The translations under genes and the position numbers were made by a program. A model generated the notes under the pieces. That model searched no databases. It was not told the origin of the DNA and worked only from the letters and a program-made list of their open reading frames with translations. Positions 10,268-32,665 of a stretch of DNA of 64,000 bases are shown piece after piece; position 1 is the stretch's first letter; every line of letters starts with the position of its first letter. The DNA is taken from positions 2,176,001-2,240,000 of the forward strand of contig OY762897.2 of NCBI GenBank assembly GCA_963666515.2, written 5' to 3'. Source of the stretch: Candidatus Binatia bacterium (GTDB lineage Bacteria > Desulfobacterota > Binatia > UBA9968 > JAJDTQ01).

Positions 10268-13200
10268 TCAGGCGAGCTTCAACTCGTCGGATACCTGGGA
10301 CAGCAGCTCGTTGATTTCCTCTACGGCTTCCGGTGCGGGAGCGGTCTCGCCGCCGAACTCGACCCGGACGTTGAACCGAAGGTCATGACCCACCGCGGCC
10401 TTGGCGATGTTCGGCACTTGGTCCGCCAGATCCTGGATGCCGTTGACCTCCAGGACCGCCTCGGCCGTTAGCAGCCCCTGGGGCTTCGGTGTCGGGGGCT
10501 TGACGTCACCGTCACCTTTCGGAACACGGAGGATGACGTGCCTGGCCCCGGCGAGGTCGCACGGCCAGGCGCCGCCCCCGTCGCCAAGCTCGATCCATCG
10601 CGCCCGGATACCGTCCTCTATGGCCGACTGCACGGTGAACCAGGGCAGGTTCATGCCGCGCCGGGCCGACAGCGCGGTGGCGACGGCGAGCGCGTTGGTC
10701 TCGCCATCCTTCCAGGCATCGGGGATCGCCTCGGCCATCAGCTCGTGAACCTCGAACCGCTCGGGGGGCGGGTGCAGCATCGCCGCGGCACCGAGGACCC
10801 CTGCGGGCACGGGCTCCTTCAGGATCGAAGCCGGTCCGTTGGTCAGCCACACGAGCCCGTTCTCCACGGCCTGTGAAACCGCCGCTTCCACGTCCTCCGG
10901 CTCGCACTTCGGCAACGTGACGGTCTCTTCATAGCCGTCCATCGGGACCGTCACGGTGTGGCCGCCGGCAAAGTAGTCGCACACGTCCTGGACGCTGATC
11001 CCTCCTTCGCGCCACAGTCCGGGCAGCTTTTCCGGTTCGAACAGCTCGGCCGGCAGCTCACTGAGTGTCACGGCTTCGGGCAATAAGACCTCCAGACCCG
11101 AGTCCTTGAGCGCAGGCTCGTCGATGGCCGTGCGCCAGAACGTTCTGACGGTCCTGTCAGGACGCAACAGCCGTGCCACCCATATCCCCTGGCGGACGCC
11201 CTGCACGACGGTATCGAGTATCTCCTTCGTCCGCAGCATCTTGGGCAGCTTGGGAAACTGGGCGAACGCTCCCACCAGGTCCTTCACCCGGCGCCCATCC
11301 TCCCCTTCCCGCCACAGGTCGTACGGACCGCCCGGCAGCATCGCCTCCGAGTTGATGGCCGTCTCCTGGATGCGGGAGCGCCTGTCCGCCTTGATGATCG
11401 TGAACAGGGGTTCGTCCGTCACCACCACCTTGAAGGCCTGGACGTCGTCGTTTTCGTTCACTGTGACGACAATGGAATATGCCTGGGTGACGGCGTCCGG
11501 GACGCGCTTCCGCGCAGCGTCCAGCTCCCTGGCGAGCATCTGCTCCCGGACGAGGTCGATGGACTGGTCCTTGAGCTGGTCGCGGACCTCCACCCAGCCG
11601 AGATATTCGCGCACGCGCGTGCGCGCCGCTTCGAGGCCGTCCCGCGAAGGAACGACCAGGACGACGGCATTGCGGTAGACCCGGGGCTTGTCGGCGGCGG
11701 TGGTCTCGTCGATGAACCGCCGTGCATCCGTGTTGGGCTTGCCGGACTCGGAGGCCGCCTTCGGTCCGAGGATGCCGTAGTGGAAATCGCCGTCGTCGGC
11801 GACGTCGCGCGGCCGCTCCGGCAGGTTGTGCACCTTCGCGCCCGCCGCCGCAGCGCCCGACGTGAGCGTCTTGCGTTTCTCGATGGCGTCGATGAGCTGC
11901 GATTCCACGAGTTCGGGCGGCACCCGCGTGGTGCACGCGTCGTGGTGCATCTGGCGCAGGTTGGGACGGTTGCCAAGCCGCCACCCCTTGGGCAGTTGCG
12001 GGGCGCCTTCCGGACCGGCGCCGCCCGTGGCCACCTGCACCTCGTCCAGGAACCAGGACAGTTCCGTCCAGCGGCGCAGGGCTTTCTCCAGCTCGATCCT
12101 GTCGGGACCGCCGGCTCCCAGCAGCGCCATCAACTCCGGCGTCGAAGCCTTGTGGCCGATGGGTTGAGAGTTGAGGAAAACCGCAATCACCGCCTGCTCG
12201 ATCTCCCGGTGGCGCAAACCCGCGGCCTCCGACTGAATCGTCCGCGCCTTGACCAGCTCGCCTTCGACGATGGGCCGCCACTCCTGCCCCCCGGCCGCTT
12301 CACCCACGCTGGCGAAAGACGCCAACTCGCTCGCGGCTTCCGCAAGGTCGTTCCTTTCCGGTTCGGCAAGCAGCACGTTGGGGCCCACCAGCGGGCTCGT
12401 GTCCCACTTCTCCGCGTCCCGTAGCGCAATGGCGAAGGTCCGCAGGATGCCGCGCGTGCGCTGGAAGCCCTCGACCTGGGTCCAGCGGGTGTAGAAGACC
12501 TCGGTGAGGTCCGGGTGAAAGGGATAGCTCTCCAGGTAGCGCTTTTCCGCGGCCTCGCGCTCCTTGCGAGTGCCCTCGTCAAGCGCGGCGATGCTGGCCG
12601 CGGCCGAGGTCACGTGCGGACGGAAAGCGTCGGTATCGCGAATCGATTCGGGTTTGAAGAAACGGCGCCGGAGAACCTCGGCCACGTCCTCCTTGCTCAC
12701 CGGGCTGGCGTCTTCCTCCTTCTGGCGGCCGAAGATCTCCGACACCTCTCGCAGCAACTCGCTGCCGAATTCATCGTTTTTCCGCGGGTCCGAGGCCAGC
12801 AGCGACGCCACCAGGGCGCAACGGTCCACCTTGACCACCGCTTGCGTCAGGTACTGGAAGAAGCTCATCAGGAGTCCGCGCCACGAGGGCTCGATCCGGG
12901 CGCGCATGTACATCAGCACCTCGTCCAGCAGCACCAGGGTCGAAAGCCCCTCCTTCTGTGGCGCCGACAACAGCTCCGCCAGGAGCGGCTCCGCAGGCGG
13001 CGTATCCCGCTCCTGGTCCTTGCCCTCGGCGTGGATCAGGCGGAGACCGTCCGGCCCGGCAAGCTGAAACGCCAGGATGCTCCACGGATGCCTGAGCATC
13101 CTCACGGTTCCGTCGGGCGCCCGCGTCTCGACCCCTTTCTCCAGGTCGATCTTGTCGAAGCACAGCGCCGCCACCCGCGCCTTGGGCGCCCGGGAACCGA

Positions 13201-13567
13201 TGTGCGCCTCGAAGTCCTGCACCGCCGACAGGTCGGGCAGCGCCGCCGGATCATGCACCAGGTGCCTGAGAGTGATGAGCGTATGAGTCTTGCCGCCGCC
13301 GTAGTTGACCGAGAGCTTCCTGCACGCCTTGTCGCTCTTGCCCGCCAGCCGAACGCACACGTCCTTGACCAACTCGCGCAGGTTGTAAGTCGGGTACGTC
13401 AGCGCGAAGAACTCCGCCGGGTCCTCGTACACCGGCCGACGGCCCTTCTGCATCATCACGTCGTGCAGGTCCGCGGCGAACACGGCCAACGAAAGCTCTC
13501 CGGTCTTGAGGTCGTCGCGCAACTGCACGACCTCGTGCCAGGGCTTCCGGGAAGGTTGGGTTGTCAT
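10268..13567 (-). CDS. DUF499-family AAA+ ATPase (restriction-like/BREX-related system)
   Basis: KPWHEVVQLRDDL..FAADL N-terminus, EFFALTYPT, Walker A YGGGKTH, Walker B VLLDE, SYPFHP, FQRTRGILR. Confidence 0.88.
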   Translation of the reverse strand: MTTQPSRKPWHEVVQLRDDLKTGELSLAVFAADLHDVMMQKGRRPVYEDPAEFFALTYPTYNLRELVKDVCVRLAGKSDKACRKLSVNYGGGKTHTLITLRHLVHDPAALPDLSAVQDFEAHIGSRAPKARVAALCFDKIDLEKGVETRAPDGTVRMLRHPWSILAFQLAGPDGLRLIHAEGKDQERDTPPAEPLLAELLSAPQKEGLSTLVLLDEVLMYMRARIEPSWRGLLMSFFQYLTQAVVKVDRCALVASLLASDPRKNDEFGSELLREVSEIFGRQKEEDASPVSKEDVAEVLRRRFFKPESIRDTDAFRPHVTSAAASIAALDEGTRKEREAAEKRYLESYPFHPDLTEVFYTRWTQVEGFQRTRGILRTFAIALRDAEKWDTSPLVGPNVLLAEPERNDLAEAASELASFASVGEAAGGQEWRPIVEGELVKARTIQSEAAGLRHREIEQAVIAVFLNSQPIGHKASTPELMALLGAGGPDRIELEKALRRWTELSWFLDEVQVATGGAGPEGAPQLPKGWRLGNRPNLRQMHHDACTTRVPPELVESQLIDAIEKRKTLTSGAAAAGAKVHNLPERPRDVADDGDFHYGILGPKAASESGKPNTDARRFIDETTAADKPRVYRNAVVLVVPSRDGLEAARTRVREYLGWVEVRDQLKDQSIDLVREQMLARELDAARKRVPDAVTQAYSIVVTVNENDDVQAFKVVVTDEPLFTIIKADRRSRIQETAINSEAMLPGGPYDLWREGEDGRRVKDLVGAFAQFPKLPKMLRTKEILDTVVQGVRQGIWVARLLRPDRTVRTFWRTAIDEPALKDSGLEVLLPEAVTLSELPAELFEPEKLPGLWREGGISVQDVCDYFAGGHTVTVPMDGYEETVTLPKCEPEDVEAAVSQAVENGLVWLTNGPASILKEPVPAGVLGAAAMLHPPPERFEVHELMAEAIPDAWKDGETNALAVATALSARRGMNLPWFTVQSAIEDGIRARWIELGDGGGAWPCDLAGARHVILRVPKGDGDVKPPTPKPQGLLTAEAVLEVNGIQDLADQVPNIAKAAVGHDLRFNVRVEFGGETAPAPEAVEEINELLSQVSDELKLA

Positions 13568-13574
13568 GCTGTCC

Positions 13575-14207
13575 TCATTCGCCGAGATCACGCCTCCCGG
13601 AAGGAAACCACTTGCTCAGGATACTCTTGAGTTCCAGAAACGCCGTATCGGTGCATCGACGCAAAGAAACCCTTTCCGCAATCTGTTGATACAGGGAAGC
13701 ACTCCGCGGTTTTTGCGCTTCACGCAGGGCCGCTTCAAATGCCTCTTTGGGCCGCCCCGGCTTAACCTCGCCCACTCGCAAGTATTTCTGCTCGATCAAC
13801 CAGGGGCGGAGTTTGGGATCACGGTTTCTCCAGCCTGCTACGACATCGACGTGCGGAGAATCACTCCAAATCCACGCTTCCAACTCTGGGGACAGCACGA
13901 CCGCCCTCGCCCGTTCGCCCCAAACCGAGCCGGCAAACGCCTCGTTGAGCGTTGTCTGGAGGTCTTGAGGCGTCGTGGCTTCCCTTCCGCTTCCCATGTG
14001 GTCGAATATGAGCAACCCATGGCCATAGTCCGCAGAGAGGTTGACCAGGAAATCAACGCCGCGCAATGCACAGGCAGGATCATGTTCCGGTTCCACAAAG
14101 ATATCGGCGTCGACGGGTCTGGTGCCCAACGCTTCTGGTCTTGCAAGCAATCCCTTCAGGACGTGTTCCAGATCCTTGTCCGCGGCAAGAATGACGATAT
14201 CCTTCAT
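13575..14207 (-). CDS. Small partner protein of ABC/AAA ATPase, MAD4-like (putative TOPRIM-like)
   Basis: MKDIVILAADKD...EPEHDPAC...PELEAWIW...PKEAFE; ATGA overlap with upstream ATPase stop; resemblance to MADS Mad4 is from recall. Confidence 0.65.
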   Translation of the reverse strand: MKDIVILAADKDLEHVLKGLLARPEALGTRPVDADIFVEPEHDPACALRGVDFLVNLSADYGHGLLIFDHMGSGREATTPQDLQTTLNEAFAGSVWGERARAVVLSPELEAWIWSDSPHVDVVAGWRNRDPKLRPWLIEQKYLRVGEVKPGRPKEAFEAALREAQKPRSASLYQQIAERVSLRRCTDTAFLELKSILSKWFPSGRRDLGE

Positions 14208-15457
14208 CCCAAGACCCCTGATGCAAGCAACATGCCGAGCTTGGCTTCGCCATGCCACTGCTTGAGCCTGGGATGCTCGGAACCGAGCACGATGTCCGTT
14301 GCTCCCATCCCGTCTTTGGCGAAGCATAACACGTCGCGTATTCCAGCGGCGTTCAATACTACCGGCGAGTGCGTTGCCAGCAGCACCTGCGCGCCGTAAA
14401 CGGACGAAAGGGAATCGTACGCCGTCGCTATGGCTCTGGGATGGATGCCGTTCTCCGGTTCTTCGATCAGGTAGATGCCACGAAGATCATTGAGATAGGC
14501 GGGCAAGGTCAGGGCTGTCAGCCTGAGGGTGCCGTCAGAGACCATCCAGGACGGCACTTTCAATCCACCTTTGTACTCATAGACCATGTAGCAATGTCTG
14601 TCGTCCTTTCGTTCAACGGTCGTAATCTCCTCCAGATCAGTCAGCGCCGTACGGAGGTGTGCGATCCAATCCCGGTATCGGTCTCCAGCTTCTCCACGCA
14701 ACCGCTCAACGACCCACGGCAGATTCGATCCGTTGGGCAAGAAACCTGCCACTCGCGTCGGCGGACTGGCCTGCCTGATCGCAAGGCTGTTGAGAACAAA
14801 CTTCTGCACCCCGGAGCTCAGGTATTCTCGAAACCACATGGCCACGGGGAGAGCATTGACGTCCGCGGGGAGATTGCCGAGGGCCGACTTTTGCGGCCCC
14901 AGCTTGAACGACGGCGCCCAGCCTTTTCCCCCTCGGGGATAGGTTTCACTGTAGAAGTTGTCGTTCCCTCCCGGCACCTTGTTGACTACGGTCTTGTAGT
15001 TCCGGCCCTTGGTCAGCAACGACTTCGGCGCGTCGGGCGGCATGGGAAACAGTGAGCGCTGGAGCGGCTCCGTCCCATTGTCTTTCTTGAGCAGGAACTT
15101 CTCCGCCTTGAACTCGAACTGCAGTTGTGTCTCATCGAAACCGATCGCCACTTCATACCGCGCCGTGTCCAACTCCGGTCTCGCCGTCCGCTTCCGCAAC
15201 TCATCCGGTATCCGCGCTTCGATGGCCAGTTCCAACCTGTCTCCCTGACGCCGAAACAGGAGCTCTTGCGGGTTGTTGGTTCGGCCGGACGTGGCTGCGT
15301 CCAAACCCTCCGACAAAAGGTCCTGGAGAAAGCCAACGACATCGAGAAAAGTCGTTTTGCCGGACGCGTTCGGTCCCACCAGTACGTGAAACGGGTGAAG
15401 CGGCCTCGAGACGTACCGCAAGCATCGATAGTTCAGCGCTTCAACCAGTGTGATCAT
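14204..15457 (-). CDS. ABC/AAA_21-type ATPase, MAD3-like
   Basis: Walker A GPNASGKTT, signature VSDGTLR, Walker B IEEPENGIHP, H-loop ATHSP. Confidence 0.85.
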   Translation of the reverse strand: MITLVEALNYRCLRYVSRPLHPFHVLVGPNASGKTTFLDVVGFLQDLLSEGLDAATSGRTNNPQELLFRRQGDRLELAIEARIPDELRKRTARPELDTARYEVAIGFDETQLQFEFKAEKFLLKKDNGTEPLQRSLFPMPPDAPKSLLTKGRNYKTVVNKVPGGNDNFYSETYPRGGKGWAPSFKLGPQKSALGNLPADVNALPVAMWFREYLSSGVQKFVLNSLAIRQASPPTRVAGFLPNGSNLPWVVERLRGEAGDRYRDWIAHLRTALTDLEEITTVERKDDRHCYMVYEYKGGLKVPSWMVSDGTLRLTALTLPAYLNDLRGIYLIEEPENGIHPRAIATAYDSLSSVYGAQVLLATHSPVVLNAAGIRDVLCFAKDGMGATDIVLGSEHPRLKQWHGEAKLGMLLASGVLG

Positions 15458-15493
15458 CCCTGCGCTCCATCCGGGTTCAGTGTTCAGAGGACC

Positions 15494-16147
15494 TCAGCGT
15501 GCGAGTTCCCGGAGTTTCCGTCGAAAGTACTGGAAACTGGGCGATGCGTTGTTTTCCACATCCATCAGCGGAGCGATCCTCTCCGCCCATGCCGACTTTT
15601 CCGCCCCTACTGCCTGCCATCCGTTCGATTTCAGCGCACCTGAACCGCCTGCGAATATGGCGTCAGCCAGAACTTCCCACGTGCCGCAAATCGAGTCGCT
15701 AGCGTAGCGGTTGAGGATATCGACCTTGGCGTTGGGATAGGCCGACCTGATCGCCGGGAGGTCTCCGAGCAGCCACGCTTCACCTTCTTCGATGGCGATG
15801 CAGAATCGAGTGGTCGGTCCAGGATTGCAAGCATTCAGCACGGCAAAGAGTTCCTGCCGAAATGTTTTCTGACACCTGTCGTCCAGGTCGCAAACCAAGA
15901 CCACCGCTGCTGGATAGTCGGCCGGGTAACCGGCAAATGCCCTGCCGTAGCCCTTGAGCAAACGGGGGAGTTGGTCAAGTAAAAGGCGCTTGCTGGCGTC
16001 GGTAACCCTCTTGAGGTTCCTTGGAATACGTCCGATTCCCCGGTATTTGGTCACCTTGAACGTGTGCTCACACCCGATCATCTTCGGGATCAAGATGTCA
16101 AGTGCCCTCTTGCCGGACGCGTCTTCGACAAGTACCTCGAAGTGCAT
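15494..16147 (-). CDS. DUF4276-like TOPRIM-fold partner protein
   Basis: HFEVLVEDASG, VCDLDD, IEEGEAWLLGD, SPSFQYF motifs; starts 4 nt after the ATPase stop. Confidence 0.75.
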   Translation of the reverse strand: MHFEVLVEDASGKRALDILIPKMIGCEHTFKVTKYRGIGRIPRNLKRVTDASKRLLLDQLPRLLKGYGRAFAGYPADYPAAVVLVCDLDDRCQKTFRQELFAVLNACNPGPTTRFCIAIEEGEAWLLGDLPAIRSAYPNAKVDILNRYASDSICGTWEVLADAIFAGGSGALKSNGWQAVGAEKSAWAERIAPLMDVENNASPSFQYFRRKLRELAR

Positions 16148-16151
16148 CCCA

Positions 16152-17423
16152 TCACCTGGCGTCGAAATAGTCGCTATACCAGAGGCCGCCCAACGGCAAT
16201 CCCTCCGCCACCATGTTCTCCACGATCGGATCGTCGCTCGCCCGCCGAACGGTTGAGAGGCCATCTGCTCCCTTCTCCAGTATCCAGACTTCGTTGGGCT
16301 CCAACGCATCCACCAGATAGGGTTGGTGCGTCGTCACGAAGACCTGTGAACCACCTTTGTGCGCACCGGCGTATTCACGAAATTCCTTGGCCAGTGTTTC
16401 CAGGAGCTTGTGATACAAGCCGTTTTCCGGCTCTTCGATACAGAGAAAGGGGGGCGGGGTGGGATCTTCAAGCAGCAACAGATAAGCGAACACCTTGAGC
16501 GTCCCGTCTGACATCTGCTGCGCGAAGAAGGGATCCTGAAAACCCTTGTCGTTGAACCTGAGCAATAGTCTGCCATCATTGGTTCTTTCCGTATCGATCT
16601 TGTCGATGCCCGGAATCTTGCCGGCAATGCTCTTCAGAATCTCCAAGAACCGTTGCGGATGTTCACGCTCCATAAATTGCACGACGTTACCAAGGTTGTC
16701 GCCGTGGATACTGAGATGCTTCTGAGGCCCGGCCAGCGGCAGACCGCGGGCCGCATCCGGCGTAAAGTAACTGAGATACCACCCCTCGATGAAACGGCGA
16801 AAAGCGGAGATTCGCGGGTGCTGTTTCAAGGCGCCTAGCGTGGCAATGCCGAGCCTACGACGATCCTCCAATTCGATGCGTTCAGCATCCTTGGATTCCT
16901 TCCCGGCTTTGACCAGTTCCAAAAACTCGAAAGCGTTGAAACCTTCTGTTGAATCGCCCTGAACAGCCAGATTTCCCTTCCACGCCACGCCACGCCCTTC
17001 GCTGAGAACAAGAAAAAGCGACGATGCAATATCTTCGCCCCGGTCTTCGCACATTTTCTCTTCTGACACATAAGGACGACCAGACTCGTCGACTTCGATA
17101 GCAACTTCATAGGTGATGGGAATAGAATTCTCATCTTCCCGATAGTACACCTCAAACTCCATAGGAGCCTCTTCCCCTTGCGTCCGCATTCTCTCGAAGC
17201 CGCCACGTCCCCGTGCGTCGCAAGCCTCTTCGACCCCGGATTTCAACGCATCGGCGAGAAACCCGAAGGCGTCGAACAGGGCGCTCTTGCCCACGCCGTT
17301 CTTGCCGATTACCGCCGTCATTGCTGTCACGGGTTGGACGTCCGGTCGGTCCCACAAACGGCCCAGCGTCACATCCTTGAGCACCTTGAAGTTTTTTACT
17401 CGAAAGCCTTCGATCCTGGCCAT
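16152..17423 (-). CDS. ABC/AAA_21-type ATPase
   Basis: GKNGVGKS, MSDGTLK, IEEPENGLY, TTHQP motifs. Confidence 0.88.
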   Translation of the reverse strand: MARIEGFRVKNFKVLKDVTLGRLWDRPDVQPVTAMTAVIGKNGVGKSALFDAFGFLADALKSGVEEACDARGRGGFERMRTQGEEAPMEFEVYYREDENSIPITYEVAIEVDESGRPYVSEEKMCEDRGEDIASSLFLVLSEGRGVAWKGNLAVQGDSTEGFNAFEFLELVKAGKESKDAERIELEDRRRLGIATLGALKQHPRISAFRRFIEGWYLSYFTPDAARGLPLAGPQKHLSIHGDNLGNVVQFMEREHPQRFLEILKSIAGKIPGIDKIDTERTNDGRLLLRFNDKGFQDPFFAQQMSDGTLKVFAYLLLLEDPTPPPFLCIEEPENGLYHKLLETLAKEFREYAGAHKGGSQVFVTTHQPYLVDALEPNEVWILEKGADGLSTVRRASDDPIVENMVAEGLPLGGLWYSDYFDAR

Positions 17424-17442
17424 TTTGCAGTACCTTATTGAA

Positions 17443-17841
17443 TTATTGGGTGGTAGAGGAGCGGGGCTTCAGCCTCCGTTCTCCGAATCTCCACCGGCCG
17501 TCCGCAAGCGACGCAATCGCGTCTATCTCCATCCAGCCGCCAATCAAGCCGTGGTGATGGCCTGCACCAACAAGCTGCTTTTGGCCAAGCCATCCGAACA
17601 CGAGACAGTGACCGGCATTTCGCAGGGTCCTTTTTAGCCAATCCTCCCGGACCAGCAAAGCCATGTGGCCATCCCCTTCAACGTAGCGCGCTACCGTCTC
17701 TCCACTCGGGATGCGCCACTCGCGAGTGCCCGGGACCCAGCGCAGCTTTCCCGACCTGAACAGAACCGGTGCCGGGGAAAAGGCCGTTACGCCTTCGTCG
17801 ATGGAGCAATCAAGGACATTGCCCTCCCAGTGGTAGTCTTC
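17443..17841 (-). pseudogene. Orphan C-terminal fragment (132 codons) of a large STAND NTPase, Avs2-like
   Basis: Open frame bounded upstream by a TGA at 17842-17844 reads EDYHWEGNVLDCSIDEG...LRW...ALLVREDWLKRTL...LVFGWLGQKQLVG; no start/RBS for the 5' part; overlaps the upstream ATPase tail out of frame. Confidence 0.55.
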
Positions 17842-19088
17842 TCATCGTCAGCCTCGTCGCTGTTTTCGGTGAACGCGAGCGCCGTTTCCATCCACCCTTC
17901 GCTGAGGAGCCGGCCCAGCCCGCCCTGGGATGTTCTAAGCTCCTTGGCGTTGGGCAATTCGGCAACCGGGCGAATGATGGCGTCGTAGGAATCTTCAAGA
18001 CGGCACACGACCGACGTGTTCTCGAACGTGCTGTCGTTGGCGAAAGTCAGCATGTCCGGCGCATGGGTCGTGGTCACGACCTGGACGCTGCCTTTTGCTG
18101 TCTGTCTTTCGATCAGTTCAAGCAACAGCGCCAGCCGCGCGGGGTGAATGCCCGTGTCGATTTCCTCGAAAAAGTACAAACCATGAGGGTTGTCGCCCAG
18201 CAACGCAGCCAACACCGCTAGAAAACGCAGTGTGCCGCCCGAGGCGCTATATGCCGACACCCTTCTTTCCCCGGTCTCAAGAATGTGTAGATGGACTCGG
18301 TCACTTGGATCCGGGAGAAACTCAAGTTTCGCCACGTCCATCGGTGCGAGCTCCCGCAACCAATCGGCCAGAATCGTCCGTCGCGCCTCGTCTGTGCAGA
18401 TTTCCTTCAGAACCGTCGGCAGGTTCTGTCCAAAATCGCCCAATGTGTCCGCGTTCGGGAAGGAGGGTTCGCGCATGAGCTTGGGGGTCAACTCCAGAAA
18501 ACGCATGCCCTGGAAAACACGGAGCACCGGGACTTCGGATAGATCGAAGTATAGATCTGGCTGGTCCAGGAAAAATGCCTGATTCAGAACCGGTTGAGAC
18601 GCGCTCGCGGAATATCCTAGCGGACCGTTCTTCCCATCGAGCGACAATGAGTGGTCAGTTGCTGTCGTCGCCTTGTAGACCCTTCCAGACTCGGTCTCCA
18701 GCTCCTCGCTCACCACGACAAACCTGTCAGGGCCATGAGGCTTGAATCCCACGGTGATCGCGTAAGATGTCCTTTTGCCCGCCAACTCCATCTTGACCTC
18801 GATGGAAAACTCGGATGGCTTCAAGTAGAAGGATGACGGAGAGAAACGAGCGATCTCGTTTGGAGCGCCGCGAATCGGTTCCCATTCCGGTTGGCCCCCG
18901 ACCCCGTGTTTCCCAGCGATGATTTCCTCCAGTGTGTAGCCCCGGCCAATACCGTGAAGGAAGCGGAAGGCGTCGCGGACATTGCTCTTGCCGCTTGCGT
19001 TCGCGCCCACGATCGTCGTGAACGGTCCTACCCGCAACGTCTCATCCGCGAAATTCTTGAAGTTCACGAGGCGGATCGAGGTAATCAT
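17787..19088 (-). CDS. ABC/AAA_21-type ATPase (partner gene apparently lost)
   Basis: GANASGKS, SGGTLR, FEEIDTGIHP, TTHAP motifs; GGAGG RBS before ATG 19088. Confidence 0.85.
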   Translation of the reverse strand: MITSIRLVNFKNFADETLRVGPFTTIVGANASGKSNVRDAFRFLHGIGRGYTLEEIIAGKHGVGGQPEWEPIRGAPNEIARFSPSSFYLKPSEFSIEVKMELAGKRTSYAITVGFKPHGPDRFVVVSEELETESGRVYKATTATDHSLSLDGKNGPLGYSASASQPVLNQAFFLDQPDLYFDLSEVPVLRVFQGMRFLELTPKLMREPSFPNADTLGDFGQNLPTVLKEICTDEARRTILADWLRELAPMDVAKLEFLPDPSDRVHLHILETGERRVSAYSASGGTLRFLAVLAALLGDNPHGLYFFEEIDTGIHPARLALLLELIERQTAKGSVQVVTTTHAPDMLTFANDSTFENTSVVCRLEDSYDAIIRPVAELPNAKELRTSQGGLGRLLSEGWMETALAFTENSDEADDEKTTTGRAMSLIAPSTKA

Positions 19089-19131: not shown

Positions 19132-22100
19132 TCAAAGGTGCATCTGCCGCGGCTCCTGGACGCCGTCGCGCCCGGCCACATGGTTGCTCACGGCTTCGAG
19201 AATCGCCCGCTCGTCCGATCCGGCATCGGCCAATTCGATCAGCGTCTGGAGGATCTGGTTGAACAAGGGGTTGCGCTGGAGGCCGCGGGTGTCGAGGTAG
19301 TCGTCTACCTTGACCTGATCCCCAGCTCGCCACAGGTGCATGAGCTTGTGCACCTGGTCGATCAAGGGTGCCGGCCGCCCACCCGGAGCTTCGAAACCGA
19401 GGTTGCGGCCACTGCGACGATGCCAGGGTTTGAGCTTTACTTTGGCCCCGGTGCCCGGCTCTCCAACGTCCTCCGACGGGTCCTCCTCATCGTCCGGGTC
19501 GCCGGTCTTCTCTGATTTGGTCAAGAGATCATACTGCCGGACCAGATCCGAATCGGACAGATTGCATGACAGCGCATAGAGAATACATCCGCCAATGGCC
19601 GCTTCCGTCGTACCGAAGTCGTGGCGATGGAGCAGGTAGTATGTGGTGACGTCGTCCAGTCCCGTGGCCGCCTCTTGCCCGTTGGACGACGTGGGAGCGC
19701 TTTCCTGGAACAACACGCGGCCTACTACGAAGTCCACAACCATGCGGCGGACCTCGGTCAAAAACTCCGAGACCGTCATCTGCCGGTCTCGGTCATTCGC
19801 CTTCTTGACGGCCGGATGCTTGCTGAAAGCCTCGAGCGCCGGCCCCGTAGCCGCCCATACGAAATCCGGCCCGCGGATGCCGGCATCCCAGAAGTCACGA
19901 AGTTGCCGGGTGATGTTCTCACGCATCTCGCCGAGGACTACGTTGTCCCAGCCGACACGGGAGGCTGAACGCCTCTTGCAGACTAGCCAAACGGAAGATG
20001 AGAGGGCAGCGGAGGCCATCGCGCGAGTCCTGGTCCCCATCTCCGTCTGGATGGGCCAAGAGCCATCAACTACGAGTCCGGCCCTGATCAGGGCGGCGGC
20101 GAGTGTCTCCCATGCATCCGGCTGCTTGTTGGCGAATACGACTACTAGACGGCCGTCTGGCCGGAGCGCCGCAGCCAGGGAGCGAAACACACGGGCCATG
20201 CCATCTTCGTAGTTTTGCTTCGACCGTTCCTTGTCGCCCCCGAATCGGCTCGCGTCGTCTATGAGTTCACCGTCCTTCTCTTCATGATCCCATTTAGGGC
20301 CGAGCTTGTCCGAGAAAAGCCCATCGACCTCCGACGACAAGCCCGTTACAGATCGCCTCAACCACACGTAGAAGAAATCCATCAGGTCCGAATACGGAAT
20401 TGCATCGTAGTATGGAGGATCGGTGACAATGGCGTCATACTCTCCGGATGCTGCAACCGCGCTGGCGCCCAAGACACTGTTCCCTTCCGCCGATTGAGCC
20501 GCCACCAGTGTGTGGGCAACACAGCGCGAGACCCAATCGAGTGCACCGAGATAGTTGCCGGACGAATCCGACAGCGGATTGACCTCGGTGTAGTCCCACA
20601 CGATGGGGAGTGCGAAGCGCGCAAAGGTATGTCCGAGTTTTTCCCCGCTGTTGTGCCACGAGCAAACTGCGCTGGAGTAGTCGGCCAGCCGGTCGTTGAC
20701 GAGCGCAAGTTGCGCGATCATGGCTTCGCGCCAGCTTTCCGGCCAACCGTCGAGTTCTTGCATAAGGTTCCGAAGGACGAGAGCAAACCGTCCAAGGGTC
20801 AGTAGCTGCCGGTTGGTGAATAGCTTCCGCCAAGTGTCGAGACCGTATAGCGGAACGCGGAACCCAAGAGCCTCCTTGCTCGGCAAGGACTCCTCCGGTA
20901 GCCCGAAAGGAATATCAGCGTAGAGGATCTGGAGTTGTTCATCGGTTACCTCAGCCACAGCACGCTCATGATCCGTAGGCAAGCGGTACTCCTTGCCCTT
21001 CTGGCCATCGACAACCACCGCGGTCATCACCGCACCCAGCCTGCCCGCCCGGCCCTCAAAACGGATGTCCTCCATCGTCATGATCGTGCCGCAGCATGGG
21101 CAGGTGGCTCCGGTGCGCGACATGGTGCCCGCCCCGACACGCCTGTCGTGCTCCCGTCGCTGAGCCGCGTTGCCGCCGTTTTGCGGGACTCCGTTCTGAA
21201 CTCCAAACACGGCCCCAGTGCCGTCGGAGTTCCGATCCATCGTCAGCAGGACGCGCTTTCGTTCCTTCTTGCATAACCAGCGCGTCTTGAGCAGCGGGAG
21301 CGTGGCCCGGCACTGCTTGCAGGTCACGGTACGCGCCCAGAGAAAGGCGACCGTAGGTTTGGCAATCCAGCGCGGGTTTCGCGGGTCCTTGAGGCAGGCG
21401 GCGTCGAATTCCGCGTTGAGCGGGTCGAGTAACGGCAGGCCCCTCTCGTCAACCTCCAGAAGTCGCATGGGGCGCGGTTCAAACTCCAGGCCCGGCGCCG
21501 GCGGCTCGAACTCGGCATAGGTCGGGTAGTACGCCGCCAGTTCCCTGCGCGCCCTTGCCAGCACCCACCGCCCCCAGGCGCGCACCTGCCAGGCCAAGTC
21601 CGCTTCCACCGTCGGATCGTCATGCGCCAATGCATCAAGTTGCATTTCACCGCCGTCGCCGTGGCCGAGGCGTTCCAGGTGAGTCCGCAGGCTCGCGCCC
21701 TTGAACCCCTTGGCCTTGAGGAACGCCTCCATGAACTCCCAGTCTTCCCGGGCAAATTCAGGCAAAGGCCGCGTCTGGCCGGCGAGCTTCTGGGGATATT
21801 CAAGCGTGCACTTGAGGATGAACCAAGCCACCGGGTTGATGTCCATGGCAGTGACTTCACAGCCCAACCGCATGGCTTCGAGGGGAATAGCGCCGCCTCC
21901 GGCAAACGGGTCCAGCACCTTGGGCGCCCGGCCGCCGTACGCATTGCGTATCTCGTCCCTGAACCACGCGAGACCCGGCTGGTTCTCGCGGCCCCAGTGA
22001 AGAATGCCGCCGACGGTCTCCTCTTTCACCGTCTCGACCGTGCGGCCGTTCAAGCGCTTGCGCTCGATCTTCTCCGTGACTCGGCCCGCCATGCGCTCCA

Positions 22101-22329
22101 GGATCGCTCGGCGCTTGTCGGGATCACCGGGATCCGGCAGCAGCGTTGCGATCAACGCCGCCCGCGCCGCCGCCAACGGCCTCCGCGCCGGCCAGATATG
22201 CAGCGTGGAGATGTGCCCGTGCCGCACGTTCTTCTCGTGCACGGAGTCGAGAGACACCTGCTTGAGCGGAAAGGCCGCTTCGATGAGGCGACGGTCGCTC
22301 AAGGCGCCGTCAATGTTCGGCACCGACAT
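19132..22329 (-). CDS. DUF1156-family adenine-specific DNA methyltransferase with Zn ribbon
   Basis: LHIWPARRPL, SAM motif DPFAGGG, catalytic TDPPYY, CKQC/CPCC cysteines. Confidence 0.9.
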   Translation of the reverse strand: MSVPNIDGALSDRRLIEAAFPLKQVSLDSVHEKNVRHGHISTLHIWPARRPLAAARAALIATLLPDPGDPDKRRAILERMAGRVTEKIERKRLNGRTVETVKEETVGGILHWGRENQPGLAWFRDEIRNAYGGRAPKVLDPFAGGGAIPLEAMRLGCEVTAMDINPVAWFILKCTLEYPQKLAGQTRPLPEFAREDWEFMEAFLKAKGFKGASLRTHLERLGHGDGGEMQLDALAHDDPTVEADLAWQVRAWGRWVLARARRELAAYYPTYAEFEPPAPGLEFEPRPMRLLEVDERGLPLLDPLNAEFDAACLKDPRNPRWIAKPTVAFLWARTVTCKQCRATLPLLKTRWLCKKERKRVLLTMDRNSDGTGAVFGVQNGVPQNGGNAAQRREHDRRVGAGTMSRTGATCPCCGTIMTMEDIRFEGRAGRLGAVMTAVVVDGQKGKEYRLPTDHERAVAEVTDEQLQILYADIPFGLPEESLPSKEALGFRVPLYGLDTWRKLFTNRQLLTLGRFALVLRNLMQELDGWPESWREAMIAQLALVNDRLADYSSAVCSWHNSGEKLGHTFARFALPIVWDYTEVNPLSDSSGNYLGALDWVSRCVAHTLVAAQSAEGNSVLGASAVAASGEYDAIVTDPPYYDAIPYSDLMDFFYVWLRRSVTGLSSEVDGLFSDKLGPKWDHEEKDGELIDDASRFGGDKERSKQNYEDGMARVFRSLAAALRPDGRLVVVFANKQPDAWETLAAALIRAGLVVDGSWPIQTEMGTRTRAMASAALSSSVWLVCKRRSASRVGWDNVVLGEMRENITRQLRDFWDAGIRGPDFVWAATGPALEAFSKHPAVKKANDRDRQMTVSEFLTEVRRMVVDFVVGRVLFQESAPTSSNGQEAATGLDDVTTYYLLHRHDFGTTEAAIGGCILYALSCNLSDSDLVRQYDLLTKSEKTGDPDDEEDPSEDVGEPGTGAKVKLKPWHRRSGRNLGFEAPGGRPAPLIDQVHKLMHLWRAGDQVKVDDYLDTRGLQRNPLFNQILQTLIELADAGSDERAILEAVSNHVAGRDGVQEPRQMHL

Positions 22330-22720
22330 GTATGCGCTCCTCAGCCCAGCGAATGACAGACTTGGCAATTTCCAGTGCTTCCTGGTGCTGCTTCTCTGTG
22401 ACGGGAGGTTCGGCGCCGGGGTAGCGAGTAGCGACGGCGAAGTGAGTGAGGCGCTCCGCCTGCCACACTGCTTCGGATATCTCCTCACCCCCTTCTTCAA
22501 GAATCGTCAGCATAACGCCCAAATCATGAATGTAAGGAAACTCGACGTTACGCCGGATCAGCACCGCCTTGATGGCCTTCTCCGCGGCCTGTTGTGCCTG
22601 GGAACACAGATCCTCGATATGGATTTCGGGTCCGCGCAAGCCTGCCAGGGCAAGGCTGCTCTGAGCCCGACTCAGCCACTCTCGCGGATCATCCGGCGGA
22701 AACCGGTCAGGCGGACTCAT
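22310..22720 (-). CDS. HEPN domain protein (toxin of MNT-HEPN pair)
   Basis: QQAAEKAIKA, YIHDL, TRYP motifs; overlaps the MNT gene. Confidence 0.85.
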   Translation of the reverse strand: MSPPDRFPPDDPREWLSRAQSSLALAGLRGPEIHIEDLCSQAQQAAEKAIKAVLIRRNVEFPYIHDLGVMLTILEEGGEEISEAVWQAERLTHFAVATRYPGAEPPVTEKQHQEALEIAKSVIRWAEERIHVGAEH

Positions 22721-26393: not shown

Positions 26394-26987
26394 TCAGTCT
26401 GGCAATCCACGGAAGGCATTACGAAGATCCGCTATGAAACGCTGAAAGGACCTGTCCACACTTGCCACGCGGTCGATTTCCATATGCCGGACAATCTCAT
26501 CCGCGTATTCGATACCCCCGAGCCTCGGTACCGTTTCGGTAGCTCTAATGGCCTCGATCAGTCGTTCCTTGTAGCGGCTTCGGGCGCACTTCTGGTCGGG
26601 TGCATCGCAGCCCTTTCCGAACACAGCCTTGAACGCTGCCCCATCCAACAGCAACCAGCGCTCTATGTGGGGATCAGGTATGGCGAGGATAAGCGTGGGT
26701 TTGTCTCGACTCCTTTTGGCTTGGCTCCTTACTTCCTGCGCTCGTCGGTTCAAGCCCCTGCAGTTGGCGTCGGTGGCTACAACGAGCAGATCAGGCCACG
26801 GACTACCTTGGCGCTCGAGATCACTTATGTAGTCCTTGAGCTTTCCGACAACTTTGCCGTAGCCGCCTACGGCGTTGCGCCAATTGAGCCGTATGGAGAC
26901 ACCGTATTCCGCGGCGATCCTCTCCACGAGTGTCCCGATCACCTGCCGATGCGCGTAGTCCTCAACGAACAGCGCAATCTCACGCAT
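26394..26987 (-). CDS. Small TOPRIM-like/DUF4276-like partner of ATPase
   Basis: ALFVED, VATDAN, PDPHIERWLL motifs; overlaps the ATPase stop. Confidence 0.65.
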   Translation of the reverse strand: MREIALFVEDYAHRQVIGTLVERIAAEYGVSIRLNWRNAVGGYGKVVGKLKDYISDLERQGSPWPDLLVVATDANCRGLNRRAQEVRSQAKRSRDKPTLILAIPDPHIERWLLLDGAAFKAVFGKGCDAPDQKCARSRYKERLIEAIRATETVPRLGGIEYADEIVRHMEIDRVASVDRSFQRFIADLRNAFRGLPD

Positions 26988-28290
26988 CGAAATCTCCTCT
27001 CAGAATGCGTTCAGACACGGCTGGTGCGTCCTGCTGGTCCGATAGTGCCTCATCGATCCCAATCCGTCGTCCCAATGGCCCCCAAACAGAAAACGAGTCG
27101 ATCCGAGTCCTTCGGTCGATCCGATTCATCACGAACAGGGAGCTGTCCTCCAACATATCAGGCAGGATGGGCGAGTGCGTCGTGACAACGTACTGGGTCG
27201 TCTTCAGGACCTCCTGAGTCTTGAGAAGCTCAGCGATGAGCTGGATTCGACGAGGGTGAACGCCGTTTTCTGGTTCTTCGAAACCCACAAGCGCAGGGGC
27301 CTCGTCAACACCGGTCAACGCTAGAAGCCCGAGCATCCGCAGTGTCCCTTCCGAGAGTACGCGAGCGGGGAACGCAACACCGCCTTCCCGGAGGCGAAGC
27401 TCCACCTCACCGAGATCGCTAACCTCCACTTCGATGCCGTCGATGTTCGGCATCAACAGATTGAGCGCCTTCTCAATGCCTTTGAACTGTCTCTCATCCG
27501 TGGCCTTCATGGTGTTGAGGAACGCTGCGAGCTCTTCTCCCATCAAGCCGATATGGCGGACTTCCTTTACCGGATTGGCGGCACGCATGCGTTCGCGCGG
27601 CTCGAAGTAGAAAAACAACCAACTCTCCAACTCGCGCCGTGCAGCCACCAAATGGGGATAGTGTGGCGGATAATGCGGCATGGAGAGGATGCTATGATCC
27701 AGATAACGGTCGAAATAGGTGGGGTGCGCTTGCCCTTCGTGGCGGAGGTGTATTCTTCCGCCTTGTCTTTCGAGAAAAGGCTTGCGCTTGCCCGTGGGCT
27801 CTCCCTTGCTGTTGAGCGCAGCCAGATACTCGTCGGCAACACGCAACACGCCCGACCTGGGCAGCATTTCCACCTCAATGCGGTACCGCAAGTCGCGTTC
27901 ACGAACGCGCGCTGGCACCTTGCTCTGCTTCTGGGAGACTCCGGCATCGTTTGGTCGACGCATTTCTCGGATCTGGCGATCGACGAACTTTACCACGCTG
28001 TCCGACAAGCTCAGATCGGCTTCGATTGAAAACGACAACCGCTCTTGCTCCAGCAAACCCTTGATCCCTGTTTGCCCTATCGTAAAGGACTCCAGCGGCT
28101 TTCCACGATAAGGAGGCTCAAAGGCTTCTTTGAGCGTCCGGCTCGTCACTAGCTTTGACAACAATTGCAAAGCGTCAAGTAGATTGCTCTTGCCGGCGGC
28201 ATTCGGCCCAAACAGGACGACAAGCTGAGACAGACTCACTTCAACGTCTTCAAGGGACTTGTACCCTCGTATTTGTACGCGCTTCAGCAT
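26980..28290 (-). CDS. ABC/AAA_21-type ATPase
   Basis: GPNAAGKS, LSEGTLR, FEEPENGVHP, TTHSP motifs. Confidence 0.88.
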   Translation of the reverse strand: MLKRVQIRGYKSLEDVEVSLSQLVVLFGPNAAGKSNLLDALQLLSKLVTSRTLKEAFEPPYRGKPLESFTIGQTGIKGLLEQERLSFSIEADLSLSDSVVKFVDRQIREMRRPNDAGVSQKQSKVPARVRERDLRYRIEVEMLPRSGVLRVADEYLAALNSKGEPTGKRKPFLERQGGRIHLRHEGQAHPTYFDRYLDHSILSMPHYPPHYPHLVAARRELESWLFFYFEPRERMRAANPVKEVRHIGLMGEELAAFLNTMKATDERQFKGIEKALNLLMPNIDGIEVEVSDLGEVELRLREGGVAFPARVLSEGTLRMLGLLALTGVDEAPALVGFEEPENGVHPRRIQLIAELLKTQEVLKTTQYVVTTHSPILPDMLEDSSLFVMNRIDRRTRIDSFSVWGPLGRRIGIDEALSDQQDAPAVSERILRGDFDA

Positions 28291-32000: not shown

Positions 32001-32661
32001 CGTGATCGCCCTCGGGACCGGCGAACGGGTTGCCTACGCGCGCATCCGCGCCGCTGACGATGCGGAACGGCAGGCGAAACAGCGTGCGCATCTCCCGCTC
32101 CCAGTTTCCCACCAGGCCGGCGGGCGGCACGATGAGCACGCGGCGGATGAGCCGCCGGGACAGCATCTCGCGTACGTACAGGCCCGTCATGATGGTCTTC
32201 CCCGCCCCTGCATCGTCGGCAAGCAGAAAGCGCAGGGGAGCTTGCCGCAGCATCTGCTCGTAGACGGCGATTCGCTGATGGGGAAGCGGGTCGATCAGTG
32301 AAGTCTCGGTGGCGAAAGCAGGGTTGAAGAGGTGACCGTAGGCAAGCCGATGCGCCTCGGCGACGGCGGAGACTGCGTCGGGGTTGGCGGAGAAGTCGAG
32401 GCTGGGCGGAGTCGTCGGACCGGCATCGTATTCGACTTCGGTCCCTTCCATCACGTGGTCGGGTTGGGTCTCGATCTCCGCGATTCGCCGCCATGCCAGC
32501 TTGTTTGGACGGGACTGCCCGTTCTCCCAGCGATTGACGGTGACGTAGGATACCCCGACAAGCTCCGCGAACTGCGTTTGCGTGAGACCCTTGACTCCCC
32601 GCACACGTCTGATTCGCTGCGGGAAGTCCTCGGCCAAGTCGGGGGATACGAGAGGCGACAT
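29089..32661 (-). CDS. SNF2-family helicase with N-terminal XRE HTH and C-terminal DUF3883 (PD-(D/E)XK-like) domain
   Basis: LTQTQFAELVGVSYVTVNRWENG HTH; LLADDAGAGKT, FDEAH, EQRMGRIHRYGQ helicase motifs; GFDLRS..IEVKGR. Confidence 0.9.
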   Translation of the reverse strand: MSPLVSPDLAEDFPQRIRRVRGVKGLTQTQFAELVGVSYVTVNRWENGQSRPNKLAWRRIAEIETQPDHVMEGTEVEYDAGPTTPPSLDFSANPDAVSAVAEAHRLAYGHLFNPAFATETSLIDPLPHQRIAVYEQMLRQAPLRFLLADDAGAGKTIMTGLYVREMLSRRLIRRVLIVPPAGLVGNWEREMRTLFRLPFRIVSGADARVGNPFAGPEGDHVIVSVDTLAGERLFGCLKDAATQPYDLVVFDEAHKLSADRQPDFRVRKTDRYRLAEALAGAEVDGDRWRLPWSAQHLLLLTATPHMGKDHPYYFLWRLLLPDTLSTGDAFDAFARDSRPRHFIRRTKEELVHLDGAPLYPQRNCDTLSYDLSQGREGEQELYDDATEYLRFYYNRARVLNRSAARLAMSVFQRRLASSTYALMRSFERRLDKIEGLIEDIRDGGLTEEALARLQRNLDDIEDVFESRTADEDASIEDRGEQHEEFESQALGATVAVTLGELETERLKVEELLDKARRLFDAGEESKFEKLREVLRDPRYADEKFIVFTEHRDTAEFLVRRLEGLGFTGRVALIHGGLPYQERERQVEFFRRPAAEGGASYLVATDAAGEGINLQFCWLMVNYDIPWNPARLEQRMGRIHRYGQRHDPVVIVNLVAGGTREGRVLKTLLDKLEAMRRRLQSDKVFDVVGRLFEGVSMKDYLEQAVTDDAEAVVQQLEGHLTEEQVRALEERERVLYGQGGDVRGRLDDLKDEAEQENYRRLLPGYVRRFVEKVAPLLNLRIEGDPETTFAFVSDRPGAGDPLLPALERYAEPARQRLTVYKPATREDAVWLHPGEPLFDALSVTVLDRFGRDGLRGAVFTDPYATEPYLFHVARVTVEQREQSASKTLESRLTGLRQSNDGAVEECPVEHLLLLRGAHGFAPSRVPLATLARGMVQDAVTYAREFVLDRLVQSHRQRRTEDLPARVDFVKRGFDFRAAELTAARARLGEKARAGDPRANAELSRVKERQRSLTSHRNRALAALEAEPDLIQAGEVELLAHALVVPVQDTGETERYDSDVEAVAMQVATAYEERFGAEVADVSRPELARRAGLTDWPGFDLRSRRLGEERAIEVKGRARTGSVEMQENEWSRACNLRGRYWLYVVFDCATPNPRLVRVRDPFAKLLVKGRESLAFTITAGAVMEAAEQAGIN

Positions 32662-32665
32662 ATGA

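Follow-up and report, generated by a model that had tools for sequence, protein, structure and literature searches.

Between hmaB and hmaC of a single defense operon, the window (the whole 64,000-nucleotide stretch of Candidatus Binatia DNA analyzed here) holds three ABC ATPases in succession: A (433 aa), B (423 aa), and C (417 aa). What are three such ATPases doing in one interval? The first-pass annotation proposed a stacked panel of sensors, each possibly detecting a different phage anti-restriction factor. We favor, with a probability of about 0.6, the explanation that this cargo consists of three independently evolved split ABC-ATPase and TOPRIM-nuclease modules that accreted successively in an Hma operon and act as a second line of defense. 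The stack is an unusually dense case of a described module type and no new system: OLD-ABC plus nuclease modules are known from at least 1242 taxa in BREX and BREX-related systems (PMC12839542; PMC11232893), ABC ATPases have been called the commonest Hma cargo (10.1101/2024.01.29.577857), and a backup-sensor role for Hma-embedded ABC ATPases has already been published (Payne 2024; Rakesh & Krishnan 2026; 10.1101/2024.01.29.577857, PMC12839542). New here are three clades in one interval, MAD3-MAD4 within Hma, and a candidate partner family without a model. Few kinds of cargo are commoner in Hma and BREX-like systems than split ABC-ATPase/TOPRIM modules, and a trigger is known for PARIS only; for MAD3-MAD4 the structure is solved and the trigger lacking. 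The locus alone reveals no new mechanism; with three or four distant clades sharing a cell, it allows partner specificity, additivity, and trigger differences to be tested directly.

The host operon and its cargo

The co-oriented hmaA, hmaB, and hmaC genes all have Pfam and PADLOC matches (Table 1), so that the flanks of the array are, as the first-pass annotation had it, a methylase (DUF1156) and a DUF499 ATPase. An SNF2 helicase with a C-terminal PD-(D/E)xK-type nuclease, a DUF1156 methylase, and a DUF499 ATPase in one operon are the components of the Hma, or type 1 BREX-related (DUF499), system, whose hmaB-hmaC interval is a known insertion hotspot (PMC12839542; PMC11232893). A Pfam scan of 18 proteins with E values up to 0.1 gave no match to DUF3780, which marks type 2, or to PglZ, which marks type 3 (PMC12839542). 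The hmaB coordinates are those of the longest ORF; alignments with most relatives begin at residue ~65-70, and translation probably starts ~190 bp inside that frame.

Table 1 Features of the Hma locus, by position in the window
Feature	Position	Strand	Matches
hmaC, DUF499 AAA+ ATPase, downstream flank	10268..13567	-	Pfam DUF499 61.7 bits; PADLOC HmaC 230 bits
Module C partner, MAD4 family TOPRIM-like nuclease, 210 aa	13575..14207	-	NCBIfam NF047734 MAD4 195.6 bits (cut-off 160)
Module C ATPase, MAD3 family, 417 aa	14204..15457	-	NCBIfam NF047739 MAD3 493 bits (cut-off 420)
Module B partner, HEC-01B / DUF4276-type TOPRIM, 217 aa	15494..16147	-	PADLOC HEC-01B 310 bits
Module B ATPase, HEC-01A	16152..17423	-	PADLOC PDLC04182 HEC-01A 610 bits over 1-422; Pfam AAA_21 140 bits
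Avs2 (AVAST type 2) 3' remnant, ~125 codons, deletion/recombination scar	17443..17844	-	PADLOC Avs2; NCBIfam Avs2
Module A ATPase, ABC (AAA_21), PDC-M07A-like clade, orphan here	17787..19088	-	PADLOC best match PDC-M07A 194.5 bits
hmaB, DUF1156 adenine methyltransferase, upstream flank	19132..22500	-	Pfam DUF1156; PADLOC HmaB 406 bits
Module D, fourth ABC ATPase (26980-28290) and DUF4276 partner (26394-26987), between hmaA and hmaB	26394..28290	-	Pfam AAA_21 99.6 bits, DUF4276 36.9 bits, both above cut-off
hmaA, HTH-SNF2 helicase with C-terminal NOV_C (DUF3883) nuclease domain	29089..32718	-	Pfam Helicase_C, NOV_C, HTH_3; PADLOC HmaA 563 bits

Compared with other Hma systems, the cargo of this locus is unusually heavy: four ABC-TOPRIM modules, a SIR2-APAZ/short Argonaute pair, two toxin-antitoxin pairs, and an Avs2 scar. 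Modules A, B, and C are encoded on the minus strand throughout. The search of Payne et al. permitted at most three genes between hma genes (10.1101/2024.01.29.577857), a limit that excludes both this stack, with its five genes, and the hmaA-hmaB interval, with its eight. Module D, in the same locus, had gone unremarked in the first-pass annotation; its ATPase forms a clade of its own in the ATPase tree.

Three divergent ABC ATPases

All three ATPases match Pfam AAA_21 (96-140 bits, cut-off 27) and carry the motifs read earlier from the sequence: Walker A (GANASGKS in A, GKNGVGKS in B, GPNASGKT in C), the ABC signature (SGGT, SDGT, and SDGT, respectively), Walker B (EEIDTG, EEPENG, and EEPENG), and the TH switch. 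Their lengths agree with the ~420-435 aa given for them, C being just below that range. Identity is 23.9% between C and B (427 columns) and 24.8% between C and A (436 columns), A and B align in short local segments only, and DNA repeats among the three genes are confined to motif-sized stretches. The three ATPases are therefore not recent duplicates, in agreement with the first-pass annotation.

Modules C and B have TOPRIM partners of different families

Both genes of module C are adjacent and above their NCBIfam cut-offs, yet they lie outside MADS, which extends the contexts of MAD3-MAD4. ATPase C is 36.7% identical over its full length to MAD3 of a Piscinibacter MADS operon (E 4e-70), whereas ATPases A, B, and D score 71, 90, and 144 bits with NF047739, all under the cut-off. 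The acids D10, D43, and D69 of the partner, with E108, E110, and K154, are spaced like D12/D55/D81/E119/E121/K164 of the MAD4 pocket, so that six of its seven residues (D12, D55, D81, E83, E119, E121, K164) have a counterpart by spacing; D10 is present in 84 of 85 homologs and the other five are invariant in all 85. The residue at the E83 position is M71 in this copy, whose DxD-like motif is left with a single acid; 66 of the 85 homologs have Glu there. An EAW motif occupies residues 110-112.

Modeling of module C predicts that its ATPase and TOPRIM partner associate in the manner of MAD3 and MAD4. The 1:1 model of the cognate pair scored 0.77 and the best of three controls 0.00; solved complexes attained that mark in 116 of 157 cases and mismatched pairs in 2 of 215, although the score may reflect likeness to solved ATPase-TOPRIM complexes. 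At least 87% of contacts recur between runs, the partner pLDDT is at least 85, and 6 of the 11 MAD3 polar interface residues named in the cryo-EM paper fall on predicted contacts. Module C shares its families with MAD3-MAD4 of MADS (PMC13662399; 10.1101/2023.03.30.534895), its predicted interface corresponds in part, and its pocket corresponds by spacing in six of seven residues, but its scaffold is Hma. The genes mad6, mad7, and mad8 are mandatory in MADS, where mad2 and mad5 are the methylase and specificity genes (10.1101/2023.03.30.534895). None of mad2 and mad5-mad8 was found among 16 locus proteins scanned, a 36-residue mad2 motif match in HmaB being the only one; with no mad5-mad8 and no mad2 ortholog, the locus as a whole is not a MADS system.

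Adjacent, full-length HEC-01A and HEC-01B matches place module B in HEC-01, the Hma-embedded candidate 01 of Payne et al. (10.1101/2024.01.29.577857), a two-gene ABC ATPase and TOPRIM module of the same kind; modules A and C belong to other clades. Its partner matches Pfam DUF4276 below the cut-off (E 3.5e-5). Its predicted fold and sequence combine a TOPRIM fold with the Glu and DxD metal site of HEC-01: the acidic residues E8, D9, and D87xD89, together with E120, E121, and E123, are invariant in 80 of 80 close homologs, and EAW lies at 123-125. Two of the ATPases had been said to be followed by ~210-aa partners with N-terminal acids and EAW, which holds for both.

The first-pass annotation had also named partners without a TOPRIM or nuclease fold as what would refute its reading. 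Among 48,161 chains compared, the best match of each surviving partner is the TOPRIM region of OLD (6nk8; B, Z 9.5, rmsd 3.9, 161 aligned, model pLDDT 79; C, Z 9.6, rmsd 4.5, 178 aligned, model pLDDT 91.7), a Z of ~9.5 being modestly above background and Foldseek E-values exceeding 0.001 for both. For MAD4 itself, fold matches of the same family reached Z 8.8 and 8.5 (PMC13662399). Folds and family matches together bear out the reading of these pairs as defense-type ABC-ATPase and TOPRIM modules. OLD, Gabija GajA, and Septu belong to the same ABC ATPase superfamily. OLD and GajA are single fused ATPase-TOPRIM chains, whereas in the window two genes encode ATPase and TOPRIM, as they do in all 35 partnered cases, which rules out OLD class 1/GajA. 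The Septu effector is an HNH nuclease; the partners have no HNH/PtuB match in Pfam or PADLOC and fold as TOPRIM, which rules out Septu (PtuA with HNH PtuB). PARIS (AriA-AriB; PMC11464382) has the same split ABC ATPase and TOPRIM organization and a possible anti-anti-restriction role, but AriA is a hexamer releasing a tRNase (PMC11464382) and the partners here are ~210 aa. None matched DUF4435 (Pfam, E up to 0.1) or an AriB model (PADLOC), and the locus is accordingly not PARIS. Among solved structures AriA had no sequence match to these ATPases, and PADLOC 'AriA' matches look unspecific, since the models, of 304 and 373 positions, have the lengths of generic AAA_21 and AAA_15.

Module A has lost its partner

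Module A is an orphan in this genome and has no effector. The 363-bp gap past its ATPase, overlooked earlier, contains an Avs2 3' remnant (PADLOC Avs2, E 3.4e-15, profile positions 1371-1489 of 1504; NCBIfam Avs2, E 3.7e-8) in place of a partner, and the module is therefore broken. The remnant is 70% identical to residues 1296-1420 of an intact 1430-aa Avs2 that sits immediately before module B in another locus (L002). Homology of ATPase A to the related loci L003 and L004 ends at 17842, approximately the native end, and its final ~17 codons run into the Avs2-derived DNA.

Across loci, a ~190-aa gene with TOPRIM motifs comes next in 19 of 23 A-type ATPases and is missing in 4 of 23, as it is in the window; in L046 it was lost between two short repeats. 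Although PDC-M07A is the best match of ATPase A, the intact A partners of L004 and L053 have no PDC-M07B match, and module A is ruled out as PDC-M07 (PDC-M07A beside PDC-M07B), the window having no PDC-M07B partner. The relatives' partner lacks Pfam and NCBIfam matches as well and has only a weak HEC-01B match (E 0.0055); by sequence, it is a putative family without an existing model.

Pairing, travel, and erosion of the modules

The ATPases form four deep clades, each with SH-aLRT 100 and each spread across at least two phyla. In 54 related loci, all 35 partnered ATPases lie beside their own TOPRIM clade; 6 of 41 ATPases are orphans. Modules A, B, and C are each found alone in the slot in other genomes, and these clades are also represented in MADS, downstream of hmaC, and, by themselves, on plasmids; for an A-type pair on a Brasilonema plasmid, the annotation shows neither an hma gene nor a methylase gene within 10 kb. 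The triple stack is present in 2 of the 54 loci, both from Ca. Binatia, and a third locus carries its scars. The triple is intact in L004, gene order is kept in L003, where partner C is truncated, and L005 has lost modules A and B, leaving scars. Strict pairing, separate travel, the rarity of the triple, and the scars indicate a stack that accreted from old modules, was inherited, and is being eroded by deletions. Damage in three of four closely related genomes carrying stack or scars (the window, L003, and L005) argues that keeping all three modules is not strongly selected.

These losses raise the prospect of a passive pile-up, in which the slot is a recombination sink, the modules are toxin-like pairs that are costly and in part selfish, and no function of the entire stack is under selection. 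The repeated loss of the A-type nuclease, as in L046, the loss of modules A and B in L005, and the truncated partner C in L003 are in keeping with it, and the slot also gathers toxin-antitoxin genes and transposases, with duplicated hma fragments bordering cargo in L008, L033, and L043. We nevertheless regard it as quite improbable: dN/dS is 0.06-0.21 in all module genes tested, indicating strong purifying selection on each, the triple persists in L004 and its order in L003, and family members have measured anti-phage effects (10.1101/2023.03.30.534895; 10.1101/2024.09.26.614923).

Equally remote is the idea that the modules are accessory subunits of the Hma machine, acting only with HmaABC or kept quiet by the methylase complex, which they would guard. 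At least one such ATPase occupies the exact slot in 28 of 48 loci with hmaB in view, an AAA_21 pair is in the slot of all Halomonas hma loci (PMC11232893), and the 0 promoter-like sites within the stack (1.3 expected by chance) are compatible with co-transcription. MAD3-MAD4 is moreover required inside MADS, where deletion of mad3 and mad4 lowers defense and mad5 is deletable only together with mad2 or mad3 (10.1101/2023.03.30.534895), which would fit a nuclease restrained by the methylase complex. However, any such module is absent from 20 of the 48 loci, one clade can take the place of another in the slot, the clades also live outside it, and HmaA gives defense by itself (PMC11232893).

Variable inserts and the sensor question

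Insert identity is far below core identity in ATPase A (47-50% versus 80-81%) and ATPase B (58-70% versus 89-91%), which, with raised dS in the A insert, suggests swapping. A PARIS-like panel would account for this: each ATPase would bind a different phage anti-restriction protein directly and then free or activate a TOPRIM toxin, as PARIS does, whose variable pores have been proposed to read different triggers (PMC11464382). AriB is also among the fold matches of partner C (8v46, Z 7.5, rmsd 5.0, 170 aligned). We think such a panel unlikely, since the ATPase C insert is as conserved as its core (95% versus 95-97%, among close relatives), insert dN/dS in A and B (0.18-0.27, where computable) gives no sign of positive selection, module A lacks its effector, and no partner matched a DUF4435/AriB or HNH model, which speaks against a uniform panel. 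MAD3-MAD4, furthermore, is no hexamer freeing a tRNase but a 2:2 DNA-nicking complex whose simple co-expression is toxic without any added trigger (PMC13662399). Also doubtful is an orthogonal, selected panel in which three or four ABC-TOPRIM clades would each guard Hma against a different phage countermeasure, the A and B insert would be a swappable specificity cassette, and MAD3-MAD4 would be a free-standing guard module recruited by different methylation-based systems instead of a dedicated MADS subunit. If it were true, the intact L004 locus would lend itself directly to tests of trigger and partner specificity.

Under successive accretion as second-line defense, modules B and C, like module D upstream, probably each function as a unit and do not cross-pair. 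By analogy with characterized family members, each ATPase dimer would hold and switch on its own metal-dependent nuclease, module C nicking double-stranded DNA as MAD3-MAD4 does, and nucleic acid damage would stop the infected cell or the invader once Hma restriction is beaten or disturbed. For MAD3-MAD4, cleavage showed no link to ATP hydrolysis, and the effects of mutating the pocket were modest (PMC13662399), which leaves "switching on" tentative. The stack would gain breadth by accumulation and shrink again by short-homology deletions. Counting against this explanation, one HEC-01 failed to protect against any of the phages tried (10.1101/2024.01.29.577857); with another, E. coli B was protected from one phage or more (10.1101/2024.09.26.614923).

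Three divergent ABC ATPases in the hmaB-hmaC slot

The slot is flanked by the genes for a DUF1156 methylase (HmaB) and a DUF499 ATPase (HmaC), with an HTH-SNF2-NOV_C helicase (HmaA) upstream, and the three proteins match their PADLOC models with 406, 230, and 563 bits, respectively. The scaffold is that of Hma, classed as a type-1 BREX-related system by Rakesh and Krishnan (PMC12839542). The cargo genes have a G+C content of 55-59%, vs 67% for hmaC. Embedded genes were reported in 62.7% of 1,485 Hma systems, most commonly ABC ATPases, which were proposed to serve as a backup when anti-defence proteins attack the host system (Payne et al., 10.1101/2024.01.29.577857). Liu et al. (PMC11232893) also described this hotspot, where they found an AAA_21 pair separating hmaB from hmaC. 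The MANTIS preprint deals with Gao_RL, a related system.

The three minus-strand ATPases, with the Walker A (GxNxxGK[ST]), S[DG]GT, EE[PI][ED]xG, and TH motifs listed in the first-pass annotation, are present as described. Their mutual identity of about 24% and the existence of four deep clades exclude recent tandem duplication, as that annotation had held. ATPases B and C are each followed by a partner (217 and 210 aa) with N-terminal acidic residues and an EAW motif, and the original observation as a whole is real and correctly described. Coordinates are collected in the table.

Coordinates of features in the window and in related loci
Feature	Sequence	Coordinates	Strand	Length
ATPase A	window	17787-19088	-	433 aa
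ATPase B	window	16152-17423	-	423 aa
ATPase C	window	14204-15457	-	417 aa
Module D	window	26394-28290	-	
Clan AA aspartic protease	window	9821-10213	-	
hmaB internal segment	window	20445-20792		
MNT-HEPN pair	window	22310-23159		
Repeat, copy in MNT-HEPN pair	window	22338-22398		61 bp
Repeat, HEPN 3' fragment	window	28321-28381		61 bp
SIR2-APAZ/short Argonaute pair	window	23189-26349	-	
Inverted repeat	window	25536-25612		28 bp
Phd-type antitoxin/PIN toxin pair	window	28421-28994	-	
tRNA-Arg (likely false)	window	33923-34014		
Duplicated hma fragments	L008	9989-10864		
Duplicated hma fragments	L033	7531-9147		
Duplicated hma fragments	L043	7759-15692		
STAND/AAA_16-like protein	L004	5873-9844		1323 aa
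DUF488/ABC ATPase-Schlafen cargo	L032	3780-9805		
ThiF-containing cluster	L045	3935-8027		

Module B is HEC-01 (610 and 310 bits, PADLOC) and module C is MAD3-MAD4, both of its proteins exceeding the NCBIfam cut-offs (493 against 420 and 195.6 against 160). ATPases A, B, and D fall below the NCBIfam MAD3 cut-off, and the best PADLOC match of ATPase A is PDC-M07A (194 bits). The MAD3 reference was taken from an operon on a Piscinibacter plasmid in which mad2-mad7 were matched, and agrees at 29 of the 31 residue positions named in the MAD3-MAD4 structure paper (PMC13662399). ATPase C is 36.7% identical to it (E 4e-70), the other ATPases giving E values of 3e-13 or weaker. Known families, at a hotspot that is itself known, largely account for the locus. 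In the literature consulted, we found no description of three such clades or modules in one Hma interval, or of MAD3-4 inside Hma; the bioRxiv supplements and Supplementary Data S4 of PMC12839542 may each include examples of one or the other.

Module D, a fourth ABC ATPase with a DUF4276 partner, lies between hmaA and hmaB and forms its own clade. Among the related loci gathered from other genomes by HmaC similarity (L001-L054), this type lies downstream of hmaC in L015, and in L005 it is partnerless.

Partners B and C have a predicted TOPRIM fold

Models of partners B and C were obtained with pLDDT 79.1 and 91.7. Against 48,161 chains, the OLD TOPRIM region (6nk8) ranked first for both: Z 9.5, rmsd 3.9, 161 aligned residues for B, and Z 9.6, rmsd 4.5, 178 aligned for C. 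Foldseek likewise placed OLD (6njw) first for both, yet with E > 0.001. The Glu and DxD typical of the fold are present in partner B and invariant in 80/80 close homologues; in partner C, six residues correspond by spacing to the seven-residue MAD4 pocket, and Met occupies the remaining site, which is Glu in 66/85 homologues. Fold matches and conserved acids thus uphold the TOPRIM fold on which the first-pass reading depended, an assignment already made for DUF4276 and Mad4 in PMC12065111. Comparing the profiles of partners B and C with each other gave no significant match (E 0.053), and the case for their kinship is therefore one of fold and motifs. When solved-structure sequences, a set without MAD3-MAD4 entries, were searched, ATPase C gave nine weak matches of OLD and PtuA types, ATPase B none, and the partner-C profile nothing meaningful.

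The ATPase C-partner C complex was predicted with a score of 0.77 (best control 0.00), a mark attained by 116 of 157 solved complexes vs 2 of 215 mismatched pairs; contact agreement was at least 87% and partner pLDDT at least 85. Of the 11 polar residues that the cryo-EM study (PMC13662399) places at the MAD3 interface, six fall on predicted contacts. Likeness to solved complexes may be the source of this pass.

Module A has lost its effector

The 363-bp gap after ATPase A hides no third partner: it contains the final ~125 codons of an Avs2 gene, whose product there shares 70% identity with the end of the intact Avs2 found before module B in L002. At 17842-17844 DNA similarity changes over from L003/L004 to L002. 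In L003 and L004 the corresponding place holds a ~190-aa gene, and the module A effector has therefore been lost in the window. This partner A matched no Pfam or NCBIfam model, and HEC-01B only weakly; its PED, DRD, and EExETW motifs suggest a TOPRIM protein. In L046, partner A was deleted between two short repeats.

ATPase A has Gly at signature position 284, which is Asp in 20/20 relatives. SGG is the canonical ABC signature, the nine departures at conserved columns fall within the relatives' range of 1-18, and dN/dS is 0.18-0.21; decay of the orphan ATPase is consequently not supported. Every module gene tested gave a dN/dS of 0.06-0.21 in a comparison that excluded the out-of-frame hmaB rows. 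That the modules are a passive pile-up is distinctly improbable.

Distribution and assembly of the stack

The 54 loci come from one HmaC scan of species representatives, in which the flanks extend no further than 10 kb and many of the genomes are related. The closest are Ca. Binatia by title, and the downstream flank of the window is common to L003-L005. Among the 48 loci with hmaB in view, the slot holds no such ATPase in 20, one in 27, and three in one; of the remaining six, L004 has three and L011 two. Partners accompany 35 of 41 near-full ATPases, always from the matching clade (35/35), and six are orphans. A quick tree of 39 ATPases, built without three bearing internal stops and those matched in pieces, gave four clades, each with SH-aLRT 100 and each spread across phyla, the order between clades being unresolved.

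The A-B-C order is common to L003 and L004, with partner C truncated in L003. L005 keeps only C of the stack, the start of ATPase A being fused to the end of partner A, followed by the end of partner B. The simplest reading is that the stack was assembled once in this lineage and has since been trimmed in three of four genomes. Repeat comparisons found no repeat common to the module borders, as integron-like cassette sites would show, and the deletions rely on short chance homologies. Duplicated hmaB/hmaC fragments flank cargo in L008, L033, and L043, which suggests entry by recombination through hma sequence; in L043 a second MAD3-4-type module lies behind an hmaB fragment.

Other cargo was seen in the same slot. 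Between module C and hmaC, L004 has a candidate uncharacterised defence gene, whose product weakly resembles STAND/AAA_16 proteins and matches nothing in PADLOC. L032 carries a DUF488 pair with dual OB and a large ABC ATPase with a Schlafen gene, and the L045 ThiF cluster includes DUF2971 and PIN.

Proposed roles: autonomous nuclease units or sensors

MAD3-MAD4 was reported to form a 2:2 complex with ATPase and Mg/Mn-dependent DNA nicking activities, toxic when co-expressed, the coupling of ATP to cleavage not being established in that study (PMC13662399). MADS defence requires mad3 and mad4 (10.1101/2023.03.30.534895); among HEC-01 modules, one conferred protection from at least one phage (10.1101/2024.09.26.614923) and another did not protect (10.1101/2024.01.29.577857). 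Based on these results, we favour the modules as autonomous, cognate-paired second-line nuclease units, with a probability of roughly 0.6. The stacked sensors of the first-pass annotation would correspond to a PARIS-like panel of direct sensors (cf. PMC11464382), for which the main ground is the variable ATPase inserts; these are hypervariable in ATPases A and B, not C, and we consider such a panel unlikely. That the modules form a panel of orthogonal guards whose inserts can be swapped is similarly doubtful. Dependence of the modules on the Hma complex is slightly less probable again, on a par with passive pile-up. These alternatives to autonomous units partly overlap.

Additional features of the window

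An internal hmaB segment has no DNA similarity to L002, L003, and L021, where both sides align, and looks like a swapped target-recognition region. The aspartic-protease gene directly after hmaC is kept there in L003-L005; homologues follow hmaA in L008, L009, L010, and L018. A class I SIR2-APAZ/short Argonaute pair (613 and 643 bits, PADLOC) lies between hmaA and hmaB, and likewise after module D in L001. Within its SIR2-APAZ gene is an inverted repeat (79%), probably due to chance. The HEPN 3' fragment before module D echoes the intact MNT-HEPN pair (84% over the repeat) and is another deletion scar. The ARAGORN tRNA-Arg, inside an amidase gene and without Rfam support, is likely false. The Phd-type antitoxin/PIN toxin pair lies directly after hmaA.
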